From Candidatus Binatia bacterium (GTDB lineage: Bacteria; Desulfobacterota; Binatia; UBA12015), in assembly GCA_035651755.1 (NCBI GenBank), contig DASRFA010000057.1:52054-116053 (forward strand): a stretch of 64,000 nt of DNA, given 5' to 3'. Each line of letters opens with the position of its first letter. The first letter of the stretch is position 1. The notes beneath the pieces were generated by a model. It saw only the letters and a program-made list of their open reading frames with translations, searched no databases and had not been told where the DNA came from. This document shows positions 11,060 to 54,192 of the stretch, piece after piece. Both the position numbers and the translations under genes were made by a program.

Positions 11060-11132
11060 CGGGGCGTGGCGCAGCCTGGTAGCGCACCTGCCTTGGGTGC
11101 AGGGGGTCGGAGGTTCAAATCCTCTCGCCCCG
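11060..11132 (+). tRNA. tRNA-Pro (anticodon TGG).
   Basis: A cloverleaf is readable: acceptor CGGGGCG/CGCCCCG, anticodon stem CCTGC/GCAGG with loop CTTGGGT, and T-loop TTCAAAT. Confidence 0.85.
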
Positions 11133-11162
11133 ATTGGCCGACTTGCCGCGGCGACGCGCCGG

Positions 11163-11236
<74 letters not shown>

Positions 11237-11309
11237 GTGATTCGTTCTCCGCACGCGGCGAGCGTTGCGATGTGCGGTGCGGGCAGGTATCGCGCGGTCT
11301 TGCCGTCCT

Positions 11310-11384
11310 GGTGAGTGTAGCTCAGCTGGCAGAGCACCGGATTGTGGCTCCGGGGGTCGAGGGTTCAATCCCCTTCACTCACCT
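11310..11384 (+). tRNA. tRNA-His (anticodon GTG) with an extra 5' G(-1).
   Basis: G-1 plus GTGAGTG/CACTCAC acceptor, anticodon stem CCGGA/TCCGG with loop TTGTGGC, and T-loop TTCAATC. Confidence 0.85.
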
Positions 11385-11389
11385 TTAAG

Positions 11390-11437
11390 GCGAGGGCCTC
11401 GCGGCCCTCGCCCCGTCGGGCAAAGCCCGACGGGGCC
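11390..11437. terminator. Two consecutive GC-rich hairpins between the tRNA cluster and the convergent ogt gene.
   Basis: GGCGAGGGCC-tcgc-GGCCCTCGCC followed by CCGTCGGGC-aaa-GCCCGACGG. Confidence 0.5.
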
Positions 11438-11581
11438 CCACTCCCGCGGTCGCTTCGCTCCGCGCGCGCTTCGCGCGCGATGGTGCCGGTGGCGGCGCGG
11501 GGTGTTGAGGGTGCGCTCGCGCGGCGGGTGCTTGGCCGCGCGCTTCGCGCGCGAGCCTTCTCGCGACGTTTGTCGGAGGCT

Positions 11582-12109
11582 CTAGCGGGCGGCGGCGGCG
11601 AGGGCGGGTTGGCGGGATTCGTGGGAGAGGAGCCAACGTTTGCGGTCGAGGCCGCCGCCGTAGCCGGTGAGGTCGCCGGTAGCGCCGATGACGCGGTGGC
11701 AGGGGACGACGATGCAGATCGGGTTGGCGCCGTTGGCCGCGCCGACGGCGCGGACGGCGGCGGGGGCGCGGATGTCGCGCGCGACGTCCGAGTAGGAGGC
11801 GGTTTCGCCGACCGGGATCTGCCGGACGCGTTTCCACACCGCGAGCTGGAACGGAGTGCCGTGCGGCGCGATCTCGATCTCGTCGAGGACGGACAGGTCG
11901 CCGGCGAAGTAGTCGCGGATGCGGCGCAGGGTCGCCGACGTCCTCGGCGCGGGCCGCCATGCGGAGCGGGTCGAGCCGAGCTGGCGCTCGAGGCGGGCGA
12001 GGGTGCGGTCGCCGCGGTCGGCGAAGAGGAGCGCCAGCAGGCTGTCGCCGTCGAGGACGACGTCCAGCGCGCCGATCGGGGTCGCGATCTCGGCGATCGT
12101 CGGGGTCAT
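11582..12109 (-). CDS. ogt: Methylated-DNA--protein-cysteine methyltransferase (Ogt/MGMT).
   Basis: The active-site motif PCHRVIG and LTGYGGGLDRKRWLL, with the N-terminal Ada-like domain. Confidence 0.85.
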   Translation of the reverse strand: MTPTIAEIATPIGALDVVLDGDSLLALLFADRGDRTLARLERQLGSTRSAWRPAPRTSATLRRIRDYFAGDLSVLDEIEIAPHGTPFQLAVWKRVRQIPVGETASYSDVARDIRAPAAVRAVGAANGANPICIVVPCHRVIGATGDLTGYGGGLDRKRWLLSHESRQPALAAAAR

Positions 12110-12344
12110 CGTGGAACCTCCTTCCCGCTGGTGCGGGCGTGTGCGGATCCTGTCATGGATCGGGATCCGCGTCGCGCGGCGACGTGCCGCGTGGACGTAT
12201 CCGTATAAGAGGATACGACCGCGGACTCGCGGGATTCGGACGCGGTGGTCGGCGCCGGTGCGATGGCGCGCGGCCGCGGTTGGGCCGCCGGCACGAGCGG
12301 CTCGTCGGCATTGCGCGCCCGGAAGCAGGTCGGTAAGAACCCGG

Positions 12345-12417
<73 letters not shown>

Positions 12418-12420
12418 ACT

Positions 12421-46964: not shown

Positions 46965-47224
46965 GACGGCGTCGCCGACGCCGCCGGGTGTCCGGAAGTC
47001 CGCGCGGATCGGCAACGTATCGGCTTCGCCCCACAGGGCGGCGAGACTGGACTTTCCGCGAGACCAAAGAGCCGCTGGAGACATCGAGGATGGCCCGGAC
47101 ACCATCGTGCCAGCGGCTCCTCCGTGGTCAAGAGGAAAAGACGTCTGGGTAGTGCCTCAGTTTGATTCCGCGCGCCCCGCGCGCCGGTCGCACGACCGTT
47201 GAGCGGCCGTGCTATCCTCCGTCC

Positions 47225-47452
47225 ATGCCACGAGGCCCGAAGGGCGAGCGCCGACCCGCCGACGTGATCGGGAACGCGGTCCATGTCATGCGGATCGCGA
47301 CCGGCGAGGTCGAGGACGTGAAGAACGATCCCGCGAAGGAGCACATGCGGCGGGGCGGGCTCGCTGGCGGGAAAGCGCGCGCGCAGAAGCTCTCGAAGGC
47401 CAAGCGAACGGCTATTGCCAAGAAAGCCGCGCGGGCGCGCTGGGCCCGCTAG
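47225..47452 (+). CDS. Small basic protein (75 aa) carrying the GGKARA...LS...R..IA.KAA.ARW motif. It is a passenger of the IS.
   Basis: MPRGPKGERRP...RRGGLAGGKARAQKLSKAKRTAIAKKAARARWAR. The same motif is at the N-terminus of the neighbouring convergent gene. Confidence 0.5.
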   Translation: MPRGPKGERRPADVIGNAVHVMRIATGEVEDVKNDPAKEHMRRGGLAGGKARAQKLSKAKRTAIAKKAARARWAR

Positions 47453-48501
47453 AGTCCCCGCCCGTCGTCCTCGTCCTTCTGGTAGTCGAACGACAACTGG
47501 TAATTTCGCGGCGGATGGATGCGATCCAGCTTGTCCATGAAGTCGTGCCAGGACTGGCTCAGCTTCATCATCGTCACGACCGACCCGAGGTGCTCACGCA
47601 GCTTGGGGTATCCAACGTTCGAGGTCAGCCGCTGAAACAGCTTGTCCTTGTGGCGCCCCGATTCGAGCTTCGGGGTCACTCGCTTCAGCTCCTCTAAGAC
47701 GCCCGGGGCGAGCCGCTTGTACACGATGTTGTTCGTCAGGACGCCGAAGTACTGCGGGCGCCTTACGCTGCCGGTCGGGTAGGTCAGGCCGCGGAGGCGG
47801 AACATCTCCTCGTAGTAGTCGCCGGGGAAGGTTCGCACGTAGGGTTGCAACTCCTTGGCGATGAACGCTTCGAGGATCTTCGCCAGGGCGTCTCGCGCCC
47901 GGTCCCGCTGGTAGCCGGTAGCCTCGTCGACAAGCGCGATGATCCCGACGGTGGCGAAACCGTGCTGGAGGATGGCACAGCGCTCGGCAAGCCCTTCGAG
48001 CCGCTTACCCAGCATTCCGAGCCGACCGGCCTCAATGAGAACGGCACAAATGTCGGGAAGAATCGTGGCCTCGTAGCCATCGGCCGGGTTGCCGCCGTGC
48101 GGCGGGATGAACCGAATCGGAGAATTCGCGCGCGCGATTAAGTCCTTGATATCTATGCCTTTTCCGGCGAGTTTGGCCATCAAATCGGCGATTTTGCGCG
48201 CGCCGCCTTTTCGACCACCCTCAGACAGCCCGATGCCGCTTTGCAGGCCACGTTGCGATAGAACGCGCCGGCCGTCCGCAAGCACGTAGCAGCCAATCTC
48301 GATGTCCCCGATGCGTAGCGGGTCGTCCGGCGATCCGTGCGTGGCAGTTTGGATCGGCCCCGCCCATCGCGAGGTAGCCGCCTTACGGGCAATCGCCGTC
48401 CGCTCCTCTGGGGAAAGCGCCTGAGCCCGCGCATAACCGCCGACCGCCTTGCTCGCGTCCTTGCCCGCCTCATCAAACCCGTCAGTCGCCGCGTCATCCA
48501 T
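47449..48501 (-). CDS. P63C-domain-like phage-associated protein (350 aa). It is a passenger of the IS.
   Basis: The N-terminal motif VGGYARAQALSPEERTAIARKAATSRWAG, then the conserved region GDIEIGCYVLADGRRVLSQRGLQSGIGL...IRFIPPHGGNPADGYEATILPDICAVLIEAGR... A GGAGGA Shine-Dalgarno sequence precedes it. The P63C assignment is from memory of the family and should be confirmed. Confidence 0.65.
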   Translation of the reverse strand: MDDAATDGFDEAGKDASKAVGGYARAQALSPEERTAIARKAATSRWAGPIQTATHGSPDDPLRIGDIEIGCYVLADGRRVLSQRGLQSGIGLSEGGRKGGARKIADLMAKLAGKGIDIKDLIARANSPIRFIPPHGGNPADGYEATILPDICAVLIEAGRLGMLGKRLEGLAERCAILQHGFATVGIIALVDEATGYQRDRARDALAKILEAFIAKELQPYVRTFPGDYYEEMFRLRGLTYPTGSVRRPQYFGVLTNNIVYKRLAPGVLEELKRVTPKLESGRHKDKLFQRLTSNVGYPKLREHLGSVVTMMKLSQSWHDFMDKLDRIHPPRNYQLSFDYQKDEDDGRGL

Positions 48502-48574
48502 GCCTGCATCCTCCGAGACCCGTTGCTTGCATTTCTGGTCGTGGAATGCAAGCAGCGGCGGCATCGATGCGTGC

Positions 48575-48585
48575 AAATTGCGGGC
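48575..48585. repeat. Homopolymeric G11 tract in the divergent promoter region between the P63C-like gene and the transposase gene.
   Basis: GCGGGCGGGGGGGGGGGCCGGGCGG, about 27-37 nt upstream of the transposase ATG. Confidence 0.8.
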
Positions 48586-48611
48586 GGGGGGGGGGGCCGG
48601 GCGGAAATAGG

Positions 48612-49562
48612 ATGAACAAAATCCTTGACACTCAAGCAGCAGTTTCATATTATTCCTGCGTGAACAAGCTGCCCGCCGGGAAGCGCGCTCAGATCCTCTC
48701 GATGCTGGTCGAGGGGTCCTCCATGCGCTCAATCTCCCGCGTGGTCGACGTCTCGATCAACACCGTCGACCGCTACCTGATCCTGGCCGGCGAGGCGTGC
48801 GCTGCGTTCCACGACCGCACCGTGCGGAACGTCCGCGCCCAGCGCGTCCAGTGCGACGAGATTTGGTCCTTCTGCGGGATGAAGGAGAAGGCCGCGAAGG
48901 CGAAGGGCAGCGAGCGCCCGGAGGGCGTCGGCGACGTCTGGACATGGACCGCGATCGACGCCGACCACAAGCTCATCATCGCGTGGCTCGTCGGCGGGCG
49001 CGATGCCGGATACGCCTACGAGTTCATGCTCGACGTCGCGGGTCGGCTCGCGAACCGCGTCCAGCTCACGACGGACGGGCACGGTGCGTACCTCGCGACG
49101 GTCCCCGACGCCTTCGGCTTCGACGTCGACTTCGCGCAACTCGTGAAGGTCTACGGCCCCGATCCCCGCGAGGACCAGCGCCGCTACTCACCGGCTCAGT
49201 GCCTCGGAGCCGAGAAGCACCGGGTGATCGGCCATCCCGACCCCGAGCACATCAGCACGAGCTACGTCGAGCGGAGCAACCTGACGCTCAGGATGGCGAA
49301 TCGACGCTTCACGAGGCTCACCAACGCCTTCTCGAAGAAGCTGGCTAACCACTGCCACATGATCGCGCTCTACACGGTCTGGTACAACTTCGTGAAGATG
49401 CACAAGGCGGTTCGGATGACGCCCGCCCTCGCCGCGAACGTGACCGACCGGCTCTGGTCCATGGACGATCTGGTCGCCCTGGTGGACGAGCACGACGCCG
49501 CACGGCCGCGTCAGAAGCCGGGACGGAAGCCGAAGGCGGCGGCGGCCGGCGAATCAAACTGA
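48612..49562 (+). CDS. IS1-family transposase (fused InsA-like HTH plus InsB-like DDE).
   Basis: N-terminal HTH (ILSMLVEGSSMRSISRVVDVSINTVDRY). InsB-like motifs DEIWSFCG, WTWTAIDADHKLIIAW, LTTDGHGAY, YVERSNLTLRMANRRFTRLTNAFSKKLANHCHMIALYTVWYNFVKMH. Confidence 0.8.
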   Translation: MNKILDTQAAVSYYSCVNKLPAGKRAQILSMLVEGSSMRSISRVVDVSINTVDRYLILAGEACAAFHDRTVRNVRAQRVQCDEIWSFCGMKEKAAKAKGSERPEGVGDVWTWTAIDADHKLIIAWLVGGRDAGYAYEFMLDVAGRLANRVQLTTDGHGAYLATVPDAFGFDVDFAQLVKVYGPDPREDQRRYSPAQCLGAEKHRVIGHPDPEHISTSYVERSNLTLRMANRRFTRLTNAFSKKLANHCHMIALYTVWYNFVKMHKAVRMTPALAANVTDRLWSMDDLVALVDEHDAARPRQKPGRKPKAAAAGESN

Positions 49563-49846
49563 GGCACTACCGACGTCTGCTATAGGCATCGATAGCGCCA
49601 TGCCAGCCGCCACGTCGTCTGTGGCCGCCGCACGTCGTCATCCAAAAGAATAGTGCAGCCCGCGAGCTCGGCCCACCGGAGCGAGCACGTAGGAGACGAC
49701 CGGACGGCGGCCGGGCGATCTGTCCTACACGCGAATCCGCGTCCGTCCGACATACACGGCCCCGGAACCCGACTACGAAGCGCGCATCGATCCGGTCGCT
49801 GCTCCGCCTCGGCGGCTCGGCAGGCCGGCTCCACGAGGAGACCGAC

Positions 49847-50896
49847 ATGGAGACGCTGAAAATCGTTGGGTTGGCACAGGTCCTCGCACTCGTCCTCGCC
49901 GCGCAGGGCCGCGCTGCGCCGAGCGGCGCCCAGCTCTGCGAGGAGCAGAAGCTCCGCGCGGAGGCGAAGTACGCCGGCTGCCGACTCGTCGCCGATGCCG
50001 GCTATGCGGCGCGCGGCGACGCCGTCAAGCGCGACATCGCCTACATCAAGTGCTCGCAGAAGCTCGCTGCCGCCTACGGGAAGGTCGAGGAGAAGTATCC
50101 CGGCGTCTGCCCGACGACCCACGATCAACACGCGGTCGAGCGGTTCCTCCAGTCGTGCTCCGAGAAGGCGCGCGACTGGACGGGCGCGCGGCTCGCGTCG
50201 CCGCTCGTGTTCGAGCGCCTCGCGGCGAGCGGTCAGACCACCTGCTGGACGGGCGGCAACTCGTCGTCCTCACCGCTCCCGACCGTGTGCGCCGGCACCG
50301 GTCAGGACGGAGAGCTCCGGAAGGGCGCCGCTCTCGCCTTCGTCGACAACGGCGACGGCACGATCACCGACGAGAACACCGGTCTCCAGTGGGAGAAGAA
50401 GTCCGACGACGACAGCCTGCACGACAAGGACAACTCCTACCCCTGGATCGGCACCTGCAGCGACCATCAGTTCGGGGAGGGTTGGTGCCAGCGCGACGGC
50501 GATTGCGTGGTCTTCGGCGGCACCTGCACCGGGACGACGATCTTCGAGTGGATCGACGAGCTGAACGCGGCGCATTTCGCGGGCCACGACGACTGGCGCA
50601 TCCCGAACCTACGCGAGCTGGCGAGTCTCTCCGACTACTCCACCGGCTTCCCCGATCCGGCGCTCACGGCGGAGTTCAACACCGACTGCGGCCCGCACTC
50701 GTACGGCAACCCGGGCTGCACCGTGACGACGTGCAGCTGCACCGGCATCGACCTCTACTGGTCCTCGACCACGCTCGCGATCGCGAGCGGCGGATACGCG
50801 GAGAACGCCTGGGGCCTCTACTACGGGTACGGCTACCACTACTACGACGACAAGAGCGCCTCGCACCACGTCCGAGCGGTGCGCGGAGGGGCGTGA
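49847..50896 (+). CDS. DUF1566 secreted protein, paralog 3, with an extra Cys-rich insert.
   Basis: A signal peptide; FVDNGDGTITDENTGLQWEKK; DWRIPNLRELASL; LYWSSTT; AWGLYYGYGYHYYDDKSASHHVRAVRGG. Confidence 0.8.
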   Translation: METLKIVGLAQVLALVLAAQGRAAPSGAQLCEEQKLRAEAKYAGCRLVADAGYAARGDAVKRDIAYIKCSQKLAAAYGKVEEKYPGVCPTTHDQHAVERFLQSCSEKARDWTGARLASPLVFERLAASGQTTCWTGGNSSSSPLPTVCAGTGQDGELRKGAALAFVDNGDGTITDENTGLQWEKKSDDDSLHDKDNSYPWIGTCSDHQFGEGWCQRDGDCVVFGGTCTGTTIFEWIDELNAAHFAGHDDWRIPNLRELASLSDYSTGFPDPALTAEFNTDCGPHSYGNPGCTVTTCSCTGIDLYWSSTTLAIASGGYAENAWGLYYGYGYHYYDDKSASHHVRAVRGGA

Positions 50897-53919: not shown

Positions 53920-53929
53920 TCGGGGGGGG
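53920..53929. repeat. Homopolymeric G10 tract about 60 nt downstream of the large secreted-protein gene.
   Basis: GTGGTTCGGGGGGGGGGCGCTCGCC. Confidence 0.75.
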
Positions 53930-54192
53930 GGCGCTCGCCCAGCCGGACAGCCCGCTGTACCTGTCCAAGAATGGCGGCGCCGGCGTTCCCGTACCGGCAT
54001 GCCTGAAGGTGAAGGGAATCTACCTGAACACGCCGTGCTACACGGCGCGCAAGATCAACAGGCGACGGGTCAGATCACCGACACGTTGGCCTTGCTCTCG
54101 GGTGACCCGACTGTCGGACGCCAGTAGGCGCTGCCCGGTCCGGTCGGTCGCCACGTCGTAGGCGTCGAGCGCCTCGTCGTGCGGGAGGCACG

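Follow-up and report, generated by a model that had tools for sequence, protein, structure and literature searches.

A distant IS1-family insertion sequence from a Candidatus Binatia genome with a conserved small gene and a variable cargo slot

Which genes of a mobile element belong to its working parts, and which are only carried along? The question is raised by a 2,424-bp element at 47148-49571 of a stretch of 64,000 nucleotides (the window, whose numbering is used throughout), which sits within a metagenome contig of 125 kb, ENA ERZ27279688, attributed by NCBI to a Candidatus Binatia metagenome-assembled genome (MAG). Three open reading frames (ORFs) fill the element, namely a gene of 75 amino acids (aa) on the plus strand, a P63C-domain gene of 350 aa on the minus strand and a transposase gene on the plus strand. 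The likely answer is that the region is one complete, probably functional transporter insertion sequence (IS) of the IS1 family, in which the small gene is a core component and a slot between it and the transposase gene holds exchangeable cargo, here the phage-type P63C gene. The parts of the element are the following.

47140-47147, no strand: left copy of the target-site duplication (TSD), GACGTCTG, by direct reading identical to 49572-49579
47148-47168, plus strand: left terminal inverted repeat (IRL), GGTAGTGCCTCAGTTTGATTC, which fits the family consensus GGTAGTGYCTCAGTTTGA and begins with GGnnnTG like the IS1A ends
47225-47452, plus strand: core small gene, 75 aa
47449-48501, minus strand: P63C-domain cargo gene, 350 aa
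about 47453-48605, no strand: variable cargo slot, from the small-gene stop to the start of the conserved transposase-promoter block
48660-49562, plus strand: single-ORF IS1-family DDE transposase gene, 300 aa, GTG start
49551-49571, minus strand: right terminal inverted repeat (IRR), by direct reading the exact reverse complement of IRL, holding the transposase stop codon
49572-49579, no strand: right copy of the TSD, GACGTCTG, by direct reading

The boundaries can be read from the sequence itself. The terminal inverted repeats (TIRs) are perfect over 21 bp, and the inverted repeat reaches 33 nt at 85% complementarity. The 21-mer occurs at exactly two sites in the window even with three mismatches allowed, and 100 dinucleotide-preserving shuffles of the window predict no such site by chance. 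All the sequence features that a first-pass annotation of this DNA had described are confirmed at the positions it gave, including the 21-bp perfect repeats, the 8-bp direct repeat abutting both ends and the transposase stop codon inside IRR (TGA at 49560-49562). The same is true of the two convergent left-hand genes with a common motif (GGKARAQKLSKAKRTAIAKKAARARW and GGYARAQALSPEERTAIARKAATSRW), one of them P63C-like (Pfam P63C, E 7e-30), and of a single-ORF transposase accompanied by extra genes inside the TIRs and by no separate insA. The order of parts is thus IRL, the 75-aa gene, the slot with P63C, the promoter and gene of the transposase, and IRR.

Placement in the IS1 family depends on the transposase and on the ends. 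The identical 300-aa protein, starting at the GTG at 48660, is named 'IS1 family transposase' by NCBI, and a BLASTP comparison with E. coli InsAB' (reconstructed from the IS1A sequence, which matches annotated IS1A copies at 100% over 768 bp) gives 23% identity over 122 residues, from InsAB' residue 51. Since the alignment begins past the Cys-rich segment, the protein carries the InsA-type helix-turn-helix (HTH) at its N-terminus without the InsA-type zinc finger. In an alignment of clade members with InsAB' the columns D66-E67-x-W69, T138-D139 and E204-R205-x-N207 are invariant and all intact in the window protein, and D66, D139 and E204 are, by this alignment, the IS1 DDE triad. The ends of IS1-family elements follow the ISfinder rule GGnnnTG, which the GGTAGTG ends of this element fit. 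Those of IS1A are GGTGATG and GGTAATG (GGTGATG... and GGTAATGACTCC..., checked at 100% identity against annotated IS1A copies), and some relatives end in GGTAATGACTCACTTTGA, whose first 11 nt, GGTAATGACTC, are common with the IRR of IS1.

The marks of the IS1 family are therefore present, namely a DDE catalytic domain (marginal in Pfam), GGnnnTG TIRs of about 20-25 bp and a TSD of 8-9 bp, and the family assignment made in the first pass stands on the Pfam score, the NCBI name, the aligned catalytic residues, the ends and the 8-bp TSD. The canonical IS1 group is a different matter: there is neither an insA/insB' -1 frameshift pair nor an N-terminal zinc finger, and the single 300-aa ORF together with the alignment from InsAB' residue 51 indicates that the element is not a member of that group. 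Judged from its sequence, it belongs to the IS1 family as a distant member of single-ORF type, which would suit the single-ORF subgroups.

The element does not stand alone. Homologs of its transposase number more than 8,000 and reach 89% identity, and 148 related loci were collected from species-representative genomes and metagenomes. Their ends were sought with the degenerate consensus GGTAGTGNNTCA[GC]TTTGA, as an exact-seed TIR search gave many chance repeats. Both ends were found in 58 loci (51 unique), with an exact 8-bp flanking duplication in 49 of the 58; several of the other nine have a near-duplication of 7 nt or an end that was wrongly chosen. The elements are 1.0-5.6 kb long, most of them 2.4-3.6 kb, and the TIR consensus GGTAGTGYCTCAGTTTGA is found in about 150 related loci. 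The hosts comprise Binatia, Thermodesulfobacteriota, Polyangiaceae and other 'delta' lineages, the alphaproteobacterial Methylobacterium, Mesorhizobium, Ancylobacter, Xanthobacteraceae, Stellaceae and Acetobacteraceae, the betaproteobacterial Burkholderiales, and further Dehalococcoidales and Gemmatimonadaceae, while plasmid-borne relatives occur in Acidiphilium, Hoeflea, Mesorhizobium and Methylocapsa. These elements, of the IS1 family and with a single transposase ORF and extra genes, form a large and widespread clade that had not been annotated before.

Comparison across this clade separates the two left-hand genes. The presence of the small gene was assessed in the 68 unique loci where the transposase gene is nearly full-length and is preceded by 3 kb or more of sequence. 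A homolog of the small protein is encoded upstream of the transposase gene, on the same strand and adjoining IRL, in 58 of these 68 relatives and in 54 of the 56 with a transposase identity of at least 58%; four of the ten loci that seemed to lack it have a divergent ORF with the same motif at its C-terminus, for a total of 62/68. Across loci, identity to the window copy rises and falls together for the small protein and the transposase (Spearman rho 0.60, p 8e-8, n=66), and the best database homologs of the two proteins are 93% and 89% identical, respectively. The position next to IRL in 62 of 68 relatives and the co-divergence with the transposase argue that the small gene is a core component. 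The first-pass view of both left-hand genes as passengers fails for the small gene on the same two grounds, and only P63C is cargo.

The small protein is extremely basic (isoelectric point 11.6), with 11 Lys/Arg and no acidic residue among its last 32 residues, and its C-terminus forms a GGxARA..LS...R..IA..AA..RW module. It is predicted to be all-helical by AlphaFold2 (mean confidence score, pLDDT, 71.5), with the two C-terminal helices modelled best; structure models here and below were built from database proteins. No match to it was found in Pfam, NCBIfam or PADLOC, nor by sequence in the PDB.

The neighbouring 350-aa protein belongs to the P63C family, with a Pfam PF10546 score of 103.9 bits at a cut-off of 26.1 (E 7e-30). 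Residues 14-344 match the phage-borne family phrog_2384 (E 1e-105), and its structure model matches that of p63 of Myxococcus phage Mx8 (Foldseek E 1.3e-5). Homology links the last 30 residues of the small protein to P63C residues 19-48 (hhalign probability 97.5%, E 8e-12). The two genes are convergent and their stop codons overlap in the palindrome CTAG (47449-47452), which leaves no room for a terminator. The same 4-nt overlap recurs in locus L150 (L150:5032-5035), from an alphaproteobacterium-like genome, where a 67%-identical P63C gene stands in the same order (small gene, P63C, transposase) within a 3,782-bp element flanked by the exact 8-bp TSD CGCGGCGG.

P63C is nevertheless rare in the clade, being present in 11 of the 68 relatives, in minus orientation in six and in plus orientation in five, and its identity does not track that of the transposase (rho 0.36, p 0.26, n=12). 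Two relatives with transposases 81% and 79% identical to that of the window have P63C proteins only 31% and 41% identical to its own, and the best database homolog of the window P63C is 74% identical. In L152 a 65%-identical P63C gene stands in a chromosome, away from any IS. Rarity, occurrence in both orientations, lack of co-divergence with the transposase and existence without an IS together identify P63C as cargo. About 360 nt downstream of the IS-free P63C gene, at L152:5416-5433, a TIR-like 18-mer with three mismatches was noticed, which may be a remnant or a chance match. The P63C domain was defined in 2002, and the literature searched holds only incidental mentions of it.

The extent of the slot was determined from an alignment of 13 close-clade elements with 76-89% transposase identity. 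Nucleotide similarity runs from IRL through the stop codon of the small gene, breaks sharply there, and returns about 55 nt before the transposase start. In the window the slot contains the P63C gene and about 100 nt of its upstream region. To describe what fills it elsewhere, slot ORFs of 52 unique complete elements (51 relatives and the window copy) were clustered and scanned with Pfam and PADLOC. The commonest cargo by Pfam, in 12 elements, combines HTH_3 with Peptidase_M78 (ImmA/IrrE type) and is accompanied by unannotated partner ORFs. ATPases are represented by AAA_21/AAA_15 ('AbiEii-like'), AAA_22/nSTAND and AAA_14 with DUF4143, and toxin types by Fic/DOC (twice), PIN_10 with DUF433/HTH_66 and Gp49 (HigB-like) with an Xre HTH. 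There are, moreover, a type IIG-like enzyme (N6_Mtase/Eco57I/TaqI_C), P63C, RhuM, SocA_Panacea, an SDH-type ClpP-like protease, HARE-HTH and DUF6941. PADLOC identified the HTH-peptidase as PD-Lambda-2_B (E 1e-37, full length), the AAA_21 ATPase as HEC-04 (E 7e-47), the AAA_14 protein as PDC-S01 (E 1e-45) and the RhuM protein as PDC-S05 (E 7e-98). PD-lambda-2 is an experimentally validated three-gene abortive-infection system resembling toxin-antitoxin (TA) modules, whose B component is an Xre-peptidase fusion (PMC9519451). The annotated part of the slot content in relatives is, as far as such matches tell, largely of toxin-antitoxin and anti-phage type.

Cargo can also sit outside the central slot. 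In L150 (1973-5754) a Fic gene and a 72-aa gene follow the transposase gene, ahead of IRR, and a further gene of 128 aa separates IRL from the small gene; in an Acidiphilium plasmid copy (L156, NZ_CP041717.1, 4883-5721) a RES toxin gene and a MbcA/ParS/Xre antitoxin gene directly follow the transposase gene. The slot of some elements contains nested ISs: L026 has an ISXO2-like transposase gene there, L048 and L056 have IS3/IS481-type ORFs, and L056 shows an 867-bp inverted repeat as well.

If the small gene is part of the element proper, what might it do? Further features in the non-coding parts of the element bear on this question or lie next to those that do.

47210-47218, plus strand: conserved TGcTATCCT block, a possible extended -10 element, 6 nt before the small-gene ATG
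48524-48554, no strand: two operator-like boxes in inverted orientation to each other, TGCTTGCA (48524) and TGCAAGCA (48547), ahead of the P63C start
48586-48596, no strand: run of 11 G in the cargo upstream region
48606-48659, plus strand: conserved transposase promoter block, with the only promoter-like match in the element

The promoter block contains a sigma-70-like match, TTGACA-17-TATTAT (48625-48653), at 11 of 12 positions, where 0.3 matches are expected in the element and this is the sole one. Its -35 hexamer TTGACA occupies 48625-48630 and its -10 hexamer TATTAT 48648-48653, with the GTG start 6 nt beyond, and a promoter that ends so close to the start codon suggests a leaderless or nearly leaderless transposase mRNA. 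The -35 hexamer sits in a palindrome, CTTGA..TCAAG (48624-48636), with the arms (T)GCTTGA and TCAAGC(A); in the window copy the left arm is degenerate (CCTTGA instead of GCTTGA). The block holds the most conserved non-coding sequence of the family, ...ATGCTTGAC-N3-6-AAGCAT...TTCATATnATT...ATGAAC. Because every position is conserved and reading frames differ between sub-clades, it is better understood as a DNA signal than as an N-terminal extension of the transposase. At the other end of the element, a GTGCTA(T/C) block upstream of the small gene is kept in the alignment of the close clade, and the TGcTATCCT block may likewise be a promoter element.

A longer transposase of 316 aa, starting at the ATG at 48612 as called by ENA/JGI, was considered and rejected in favour of the NCBI call of 300 aa from the GTG at 48660. 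The block upstream of the latter keeps its nucleotides, those at third codon positions among them, in frames that differ between relatives; there is an in-frame stop in one of them (L086); the block matches a sigma-70 promoter; and the NCBI protein and most homologs begin at MNKLP. The heptamer TGAACAA is repeated at 48613 and 48661, near the two candidate starts.

The TGCTTGCA/TGCAAGCA pair upstream of P63C is unique in the 64-kb window, while shuffling predicts about 0.05 such boxes in the element (p 0.0015). Among complete elements the mean number of boxes is 2.0 in the eight whose P63C or RhuM cargo bears the motif and 0.09 in the remaining 44; six of the eight have one box or more, against four of the 44 (Fisher p 2.5e-4), and the boxes lie upstream of the motif-bearing cargo gene wherever the gene position was mapped. 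The RhuM-family protein at L123:3660-4883 (Pfam E 1.5e-63) carries the GGKARA...RW module at its N-terminus, as P63C does, and three TGCTTGCA-type boxes precede its start. Occurring in both P63C and this RhuM protein, the module is common to at least two unrelated cargo families. The half-sites that make up the boxes recur as the arms of the promoter palindrome. Of 65 loci with the small gene, 39 have the palindrome in its strict form, against none of five that lack the gene (p 0.014), which is suggestive.

It is tempting to combine these observations into a model. As in IS1, the transposase would bind the TIRs and cut the target with an 8-bp stagger, yielding simple insertions or cointegrates. 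The small protein would act as a DNA-binding regulator in the role of InsA, as its functional analogue and not its homologue, with the GGxARA...RW module binding TGCTTG/CAAGCA half-sites over the transposase -35 and repressing transposase synthesis. The N-terminal module of P63C would bind the TGCTTGCA boxes of its own promoter, so that fusion of the module to P63C or RhuM would provide autoregulation. Cargo might be exchanged between elements through recombination in the conserved flanks, and P63C may confer a conflict-related benefit on host or element, whether through defence, through addiction or through control of prophages. The proposed role of the small protein in regulating the transposase promoter by binding DNA, to which the co-occurrence of module, boxes and palindrome points, has in our estimate a chance somewhat short of even. 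The whole model, which would make the clade a minimal autonomous shuttle of 2-4 kb for defence and TA genes, with an exchange slot, a small module that represses the transposase promoter and autoregulates P63C and RhuM, and P63C as a conflict effector, is more speculative and on present data rather unlikely to hold in full.

Other explanations of the same locus deserve comparison. The region might be host DNA enclosed by chance between two independent IS ends or half-sites, an outcome that the first pass had itself named as one that would undo its reading. The probability of this is practically nil, as the window has one transposase gene and only two TIR copies, and the order IRL, small gene, slot, transposase gene and IRR recurs with an 8-bp TSD in about 50 genomic contexts from several phyla. 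Recurrence of the same architecture in dozens of unrelated contexts excludes the half-site reading, and the TIR/TSD pair does reappear in other copies, namely in 49 of the 58 relatives with both ends. Alternatively, in an ISMhu11-type IS1 element the 75-aa and P63C genes could both be incidental passengers with no part in its working. Both lie between IRL and the transposase gene, they share a motif, neither resembles insA, and ISs that carry passengers are recognised as a class (PMC7986276, PMC9330008); yet the small gene holds a fixed place and strand in 58-62 of 68 relatives whatever the cargo, co-diverges with the transposase, and lies within a stretch of inter-element similarity that is unbroken from IRL to its stop codon, whereas for P63C each of these three points is reversed, so that we regard this explanation as very improbable. 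A little less improbable, though still hard to favour, is that the small protein is no transposition regulator but acts on behalf of the cargo, as an RNA-binding protein or as a generic antitoxin or immunity factor, for instance through control of cargo translation or neutralisation of toxic cargo, and is kept because any toxic cargo needs it. Its NCBI name, its strongly basic character, the overlap of its stop codon with the convergent P63C stop both here and in L150, and the toxin-like nature of much cargo would agree with such a role. The cargo types, however, are mechanistically unrelated (peptidase, ATPases, Fic, PIN, methyltransferase) and many bring their own antitoxin or partner genes, which makes a single universal antitoxin unlikely; the fusion of the module to the N-termini of P63C and RhuM, with arrays of a specific 8-mer in their promoters, is typical of sequence-specific DNA binding, and no Pfam or NCBIfam model for RNA binding matches the small protein.

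The alternative with most to recommend it, although it too is unlikely, is that the element no longer moves and is a relic of one old insertion, intact only in looks. No second copy, fragment or solo TIR of the element occurs in the 64-kb window, with its one transposase gene; the closest transposase relative anywhere is only 89% identical; and the left arm of the promoter palindrome is degenerate. The identical transposase is also recorded on one contig only, although copy number in a MAG is uninformative, since multi-copy ISs usually break short-read assemblies. Against a relic stand the TIRs identical over 21 bp and the exact TSD, the retention of all catalytic and family-invariant transposase residues, the three open ORFs, and a GC content that has not drifted toward that of the host (65.1% in the element, below the window average of 69.0% and flanks of 68-72%). 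By all sequence criteria the element is intact, and its perfect TIRs, exact TSD and intact DDE residues make transposition activity plausible.

The reading of the element as a complete transporter IS with a core gene and a cargo slot, together with the regulatory model built on it, also has to accommodate a number of observations that weigh against one part or another. As regards family membership, the transposase exceeds the Pfam PF03400 (DDE_Tnp_IS1) gathering score only marginally (24.5 against 24.1 bits), stays under the cut-off of the NCBIfam IS1 model NF033558 (64.9 against 100), and shows the low direct similarity to InsAB' (23%) given above; the related loci were gathered with peptide patterns of the window transposase and so sample its own clade, not the whole IS1 family. 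As regards activity, the record of an identical transposase on one contig has been mentioned, and exact look-ups of both flanking proteins for the empty site (...GAGGAAAAGACGTCTGCTATAGG...) returned the same contig and locus L155, but no empty site. L155, an independent Logan assembly (SRR5581483), has the same insertion at the same site. As regards regulation, the palindrome occurs in just 39 of the 65 small-gene loci and the negative set consists of five; NCBI labels the small protein 'RNA-binding protein'; its moderate-confidence model has no Foldseek match in the PDB; and DNA binding by it is a prediction. As regards cargo, many slot ORFs in relatives have no annotation, so that 'mostly defence/TA' describes the annotated fraction only. 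P63C has no informative solved-structure match, neither it nor the small protein has a PADLOC match at E <= 0.001, and a conflict role of P63C is suggested only by the other cargo of the clade.

Set beside known systems, the element resembles E. coli IS1 (IS1A) in the DDE residues that align with InsAB', in the HTH that aligns with the C-terminal half of InsA, in its GGnnnTG ends and 8-9-bp target duplication, and in having a small gene that reads inward from IRL. It differs in its length (2.4 kb against 768 bp), in its single transposase ORF without a frameshift, in the absence of the InsA zinc finger, in an IRL-proximal small protein unrelated to InsA, and in its cargo slot. With the single-ORF and ISMhu11-type subgroups of IS1 it shares the single-ORF transposase and passenger genes inside the TIRs. 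ISMhu11-type elements measure 0.9-4.6 kb, a range that includes the window element, and IS1-family members with passenger genes reach about 4.6 kb in ISfinder; a literature search on the name ISMhu11 found nothing. An IS-like element with non-transposase genes inside its TIRs is termed a transporter IS (tIS), and the category is accepted (PMC7986276, PMC9330008). The small gene and the P63C gene inside the TIR/TSD boundaries place the window element in it. The passenger genes of tISs have, to our knowledge, been described as idiosyncratic, whereas here one non-transposase gene is conserved throughout the clade and the rest form a defined slot with rapid turnover.

Larger cargo-carrying systems include Tn3-family transposons with TA pairs, Tn7-like transposons with defence cargo, integron cassettes and P2/P4 hotspots. 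The clade is similar to these in that a conserved mobile backbone surrounds a variable region rich in TA and anti-phage genes, but its members are 2-4 kb long, rely on a single IS1-family DDE transposase, and have no resolvase, integrase, TnsABC, att/attC sites or visible machinery for cassette capture. The P63C protein, for its part, matches the models of Pfam P63C, phrog_2384 and Mx8 p63, with the difference that it is here encoded in an IS and not in a phage. The literature searched yielded no report of IS1-type elements with defence cargo. Within the limits of that search, a conserved non-transposase core gene in an IS clade, a sharply bounded slot of fast turnover with TA- and defence-type content, and a predicted DNA-binding-like module shared between core gene and cargo together with candidate operator-like boxes all appear to be undescribed.

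Taken alone, the window element is unremarkable and well formed, a further IS1-family member and a further case of an IS with passenger genes. Seen across the clade, a gene annotated as 'hypothetical' or 'RNA-binding protein' emerges as a fixed part of ISs that span many lineages and plasmids. If the slot pattern holds up, IS-sized elements would join the vehicles that spread defence genes, and the slot could mark new defence genes through 'guilt by association', with P63C and the unannotated cargo ORFs as the first candidates. The analysis also yields a testable hypothesis of a new DNA-binding module and its operator sequence.

The insertion lies in a divergent intergenic region of 309 nt, flanked by a PAS/HisKA_3 kinase operon and a gene with an Lcl_C domain. 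The kinase gene starts on the minus strand at 47105 (ATG), 42 nt from IRL, so that the element stands upstream of the operon, whose promoter has probably been displaced by the insertion. On the other side, the flank 49580-49846 separates the element from the start of the Lcl_C-domain gene at 49847. Two GerE-type response-regulator genes follow the histidine kinase gene. Within the element, the L155 assembly breaks exactly at the run of 11 G in the cargo upstream region and differs from the window by one base there, which could reflect a sequencing or assembly problem at the homopolymer or real variation in length. A second such run, of 10 G, lies at 53922-53931. Elsewhere in the window, and unrelated to the element, a cluster of four tRNA genes occupies 11060-12418 (Rfam RF00005, 64-68 bits).

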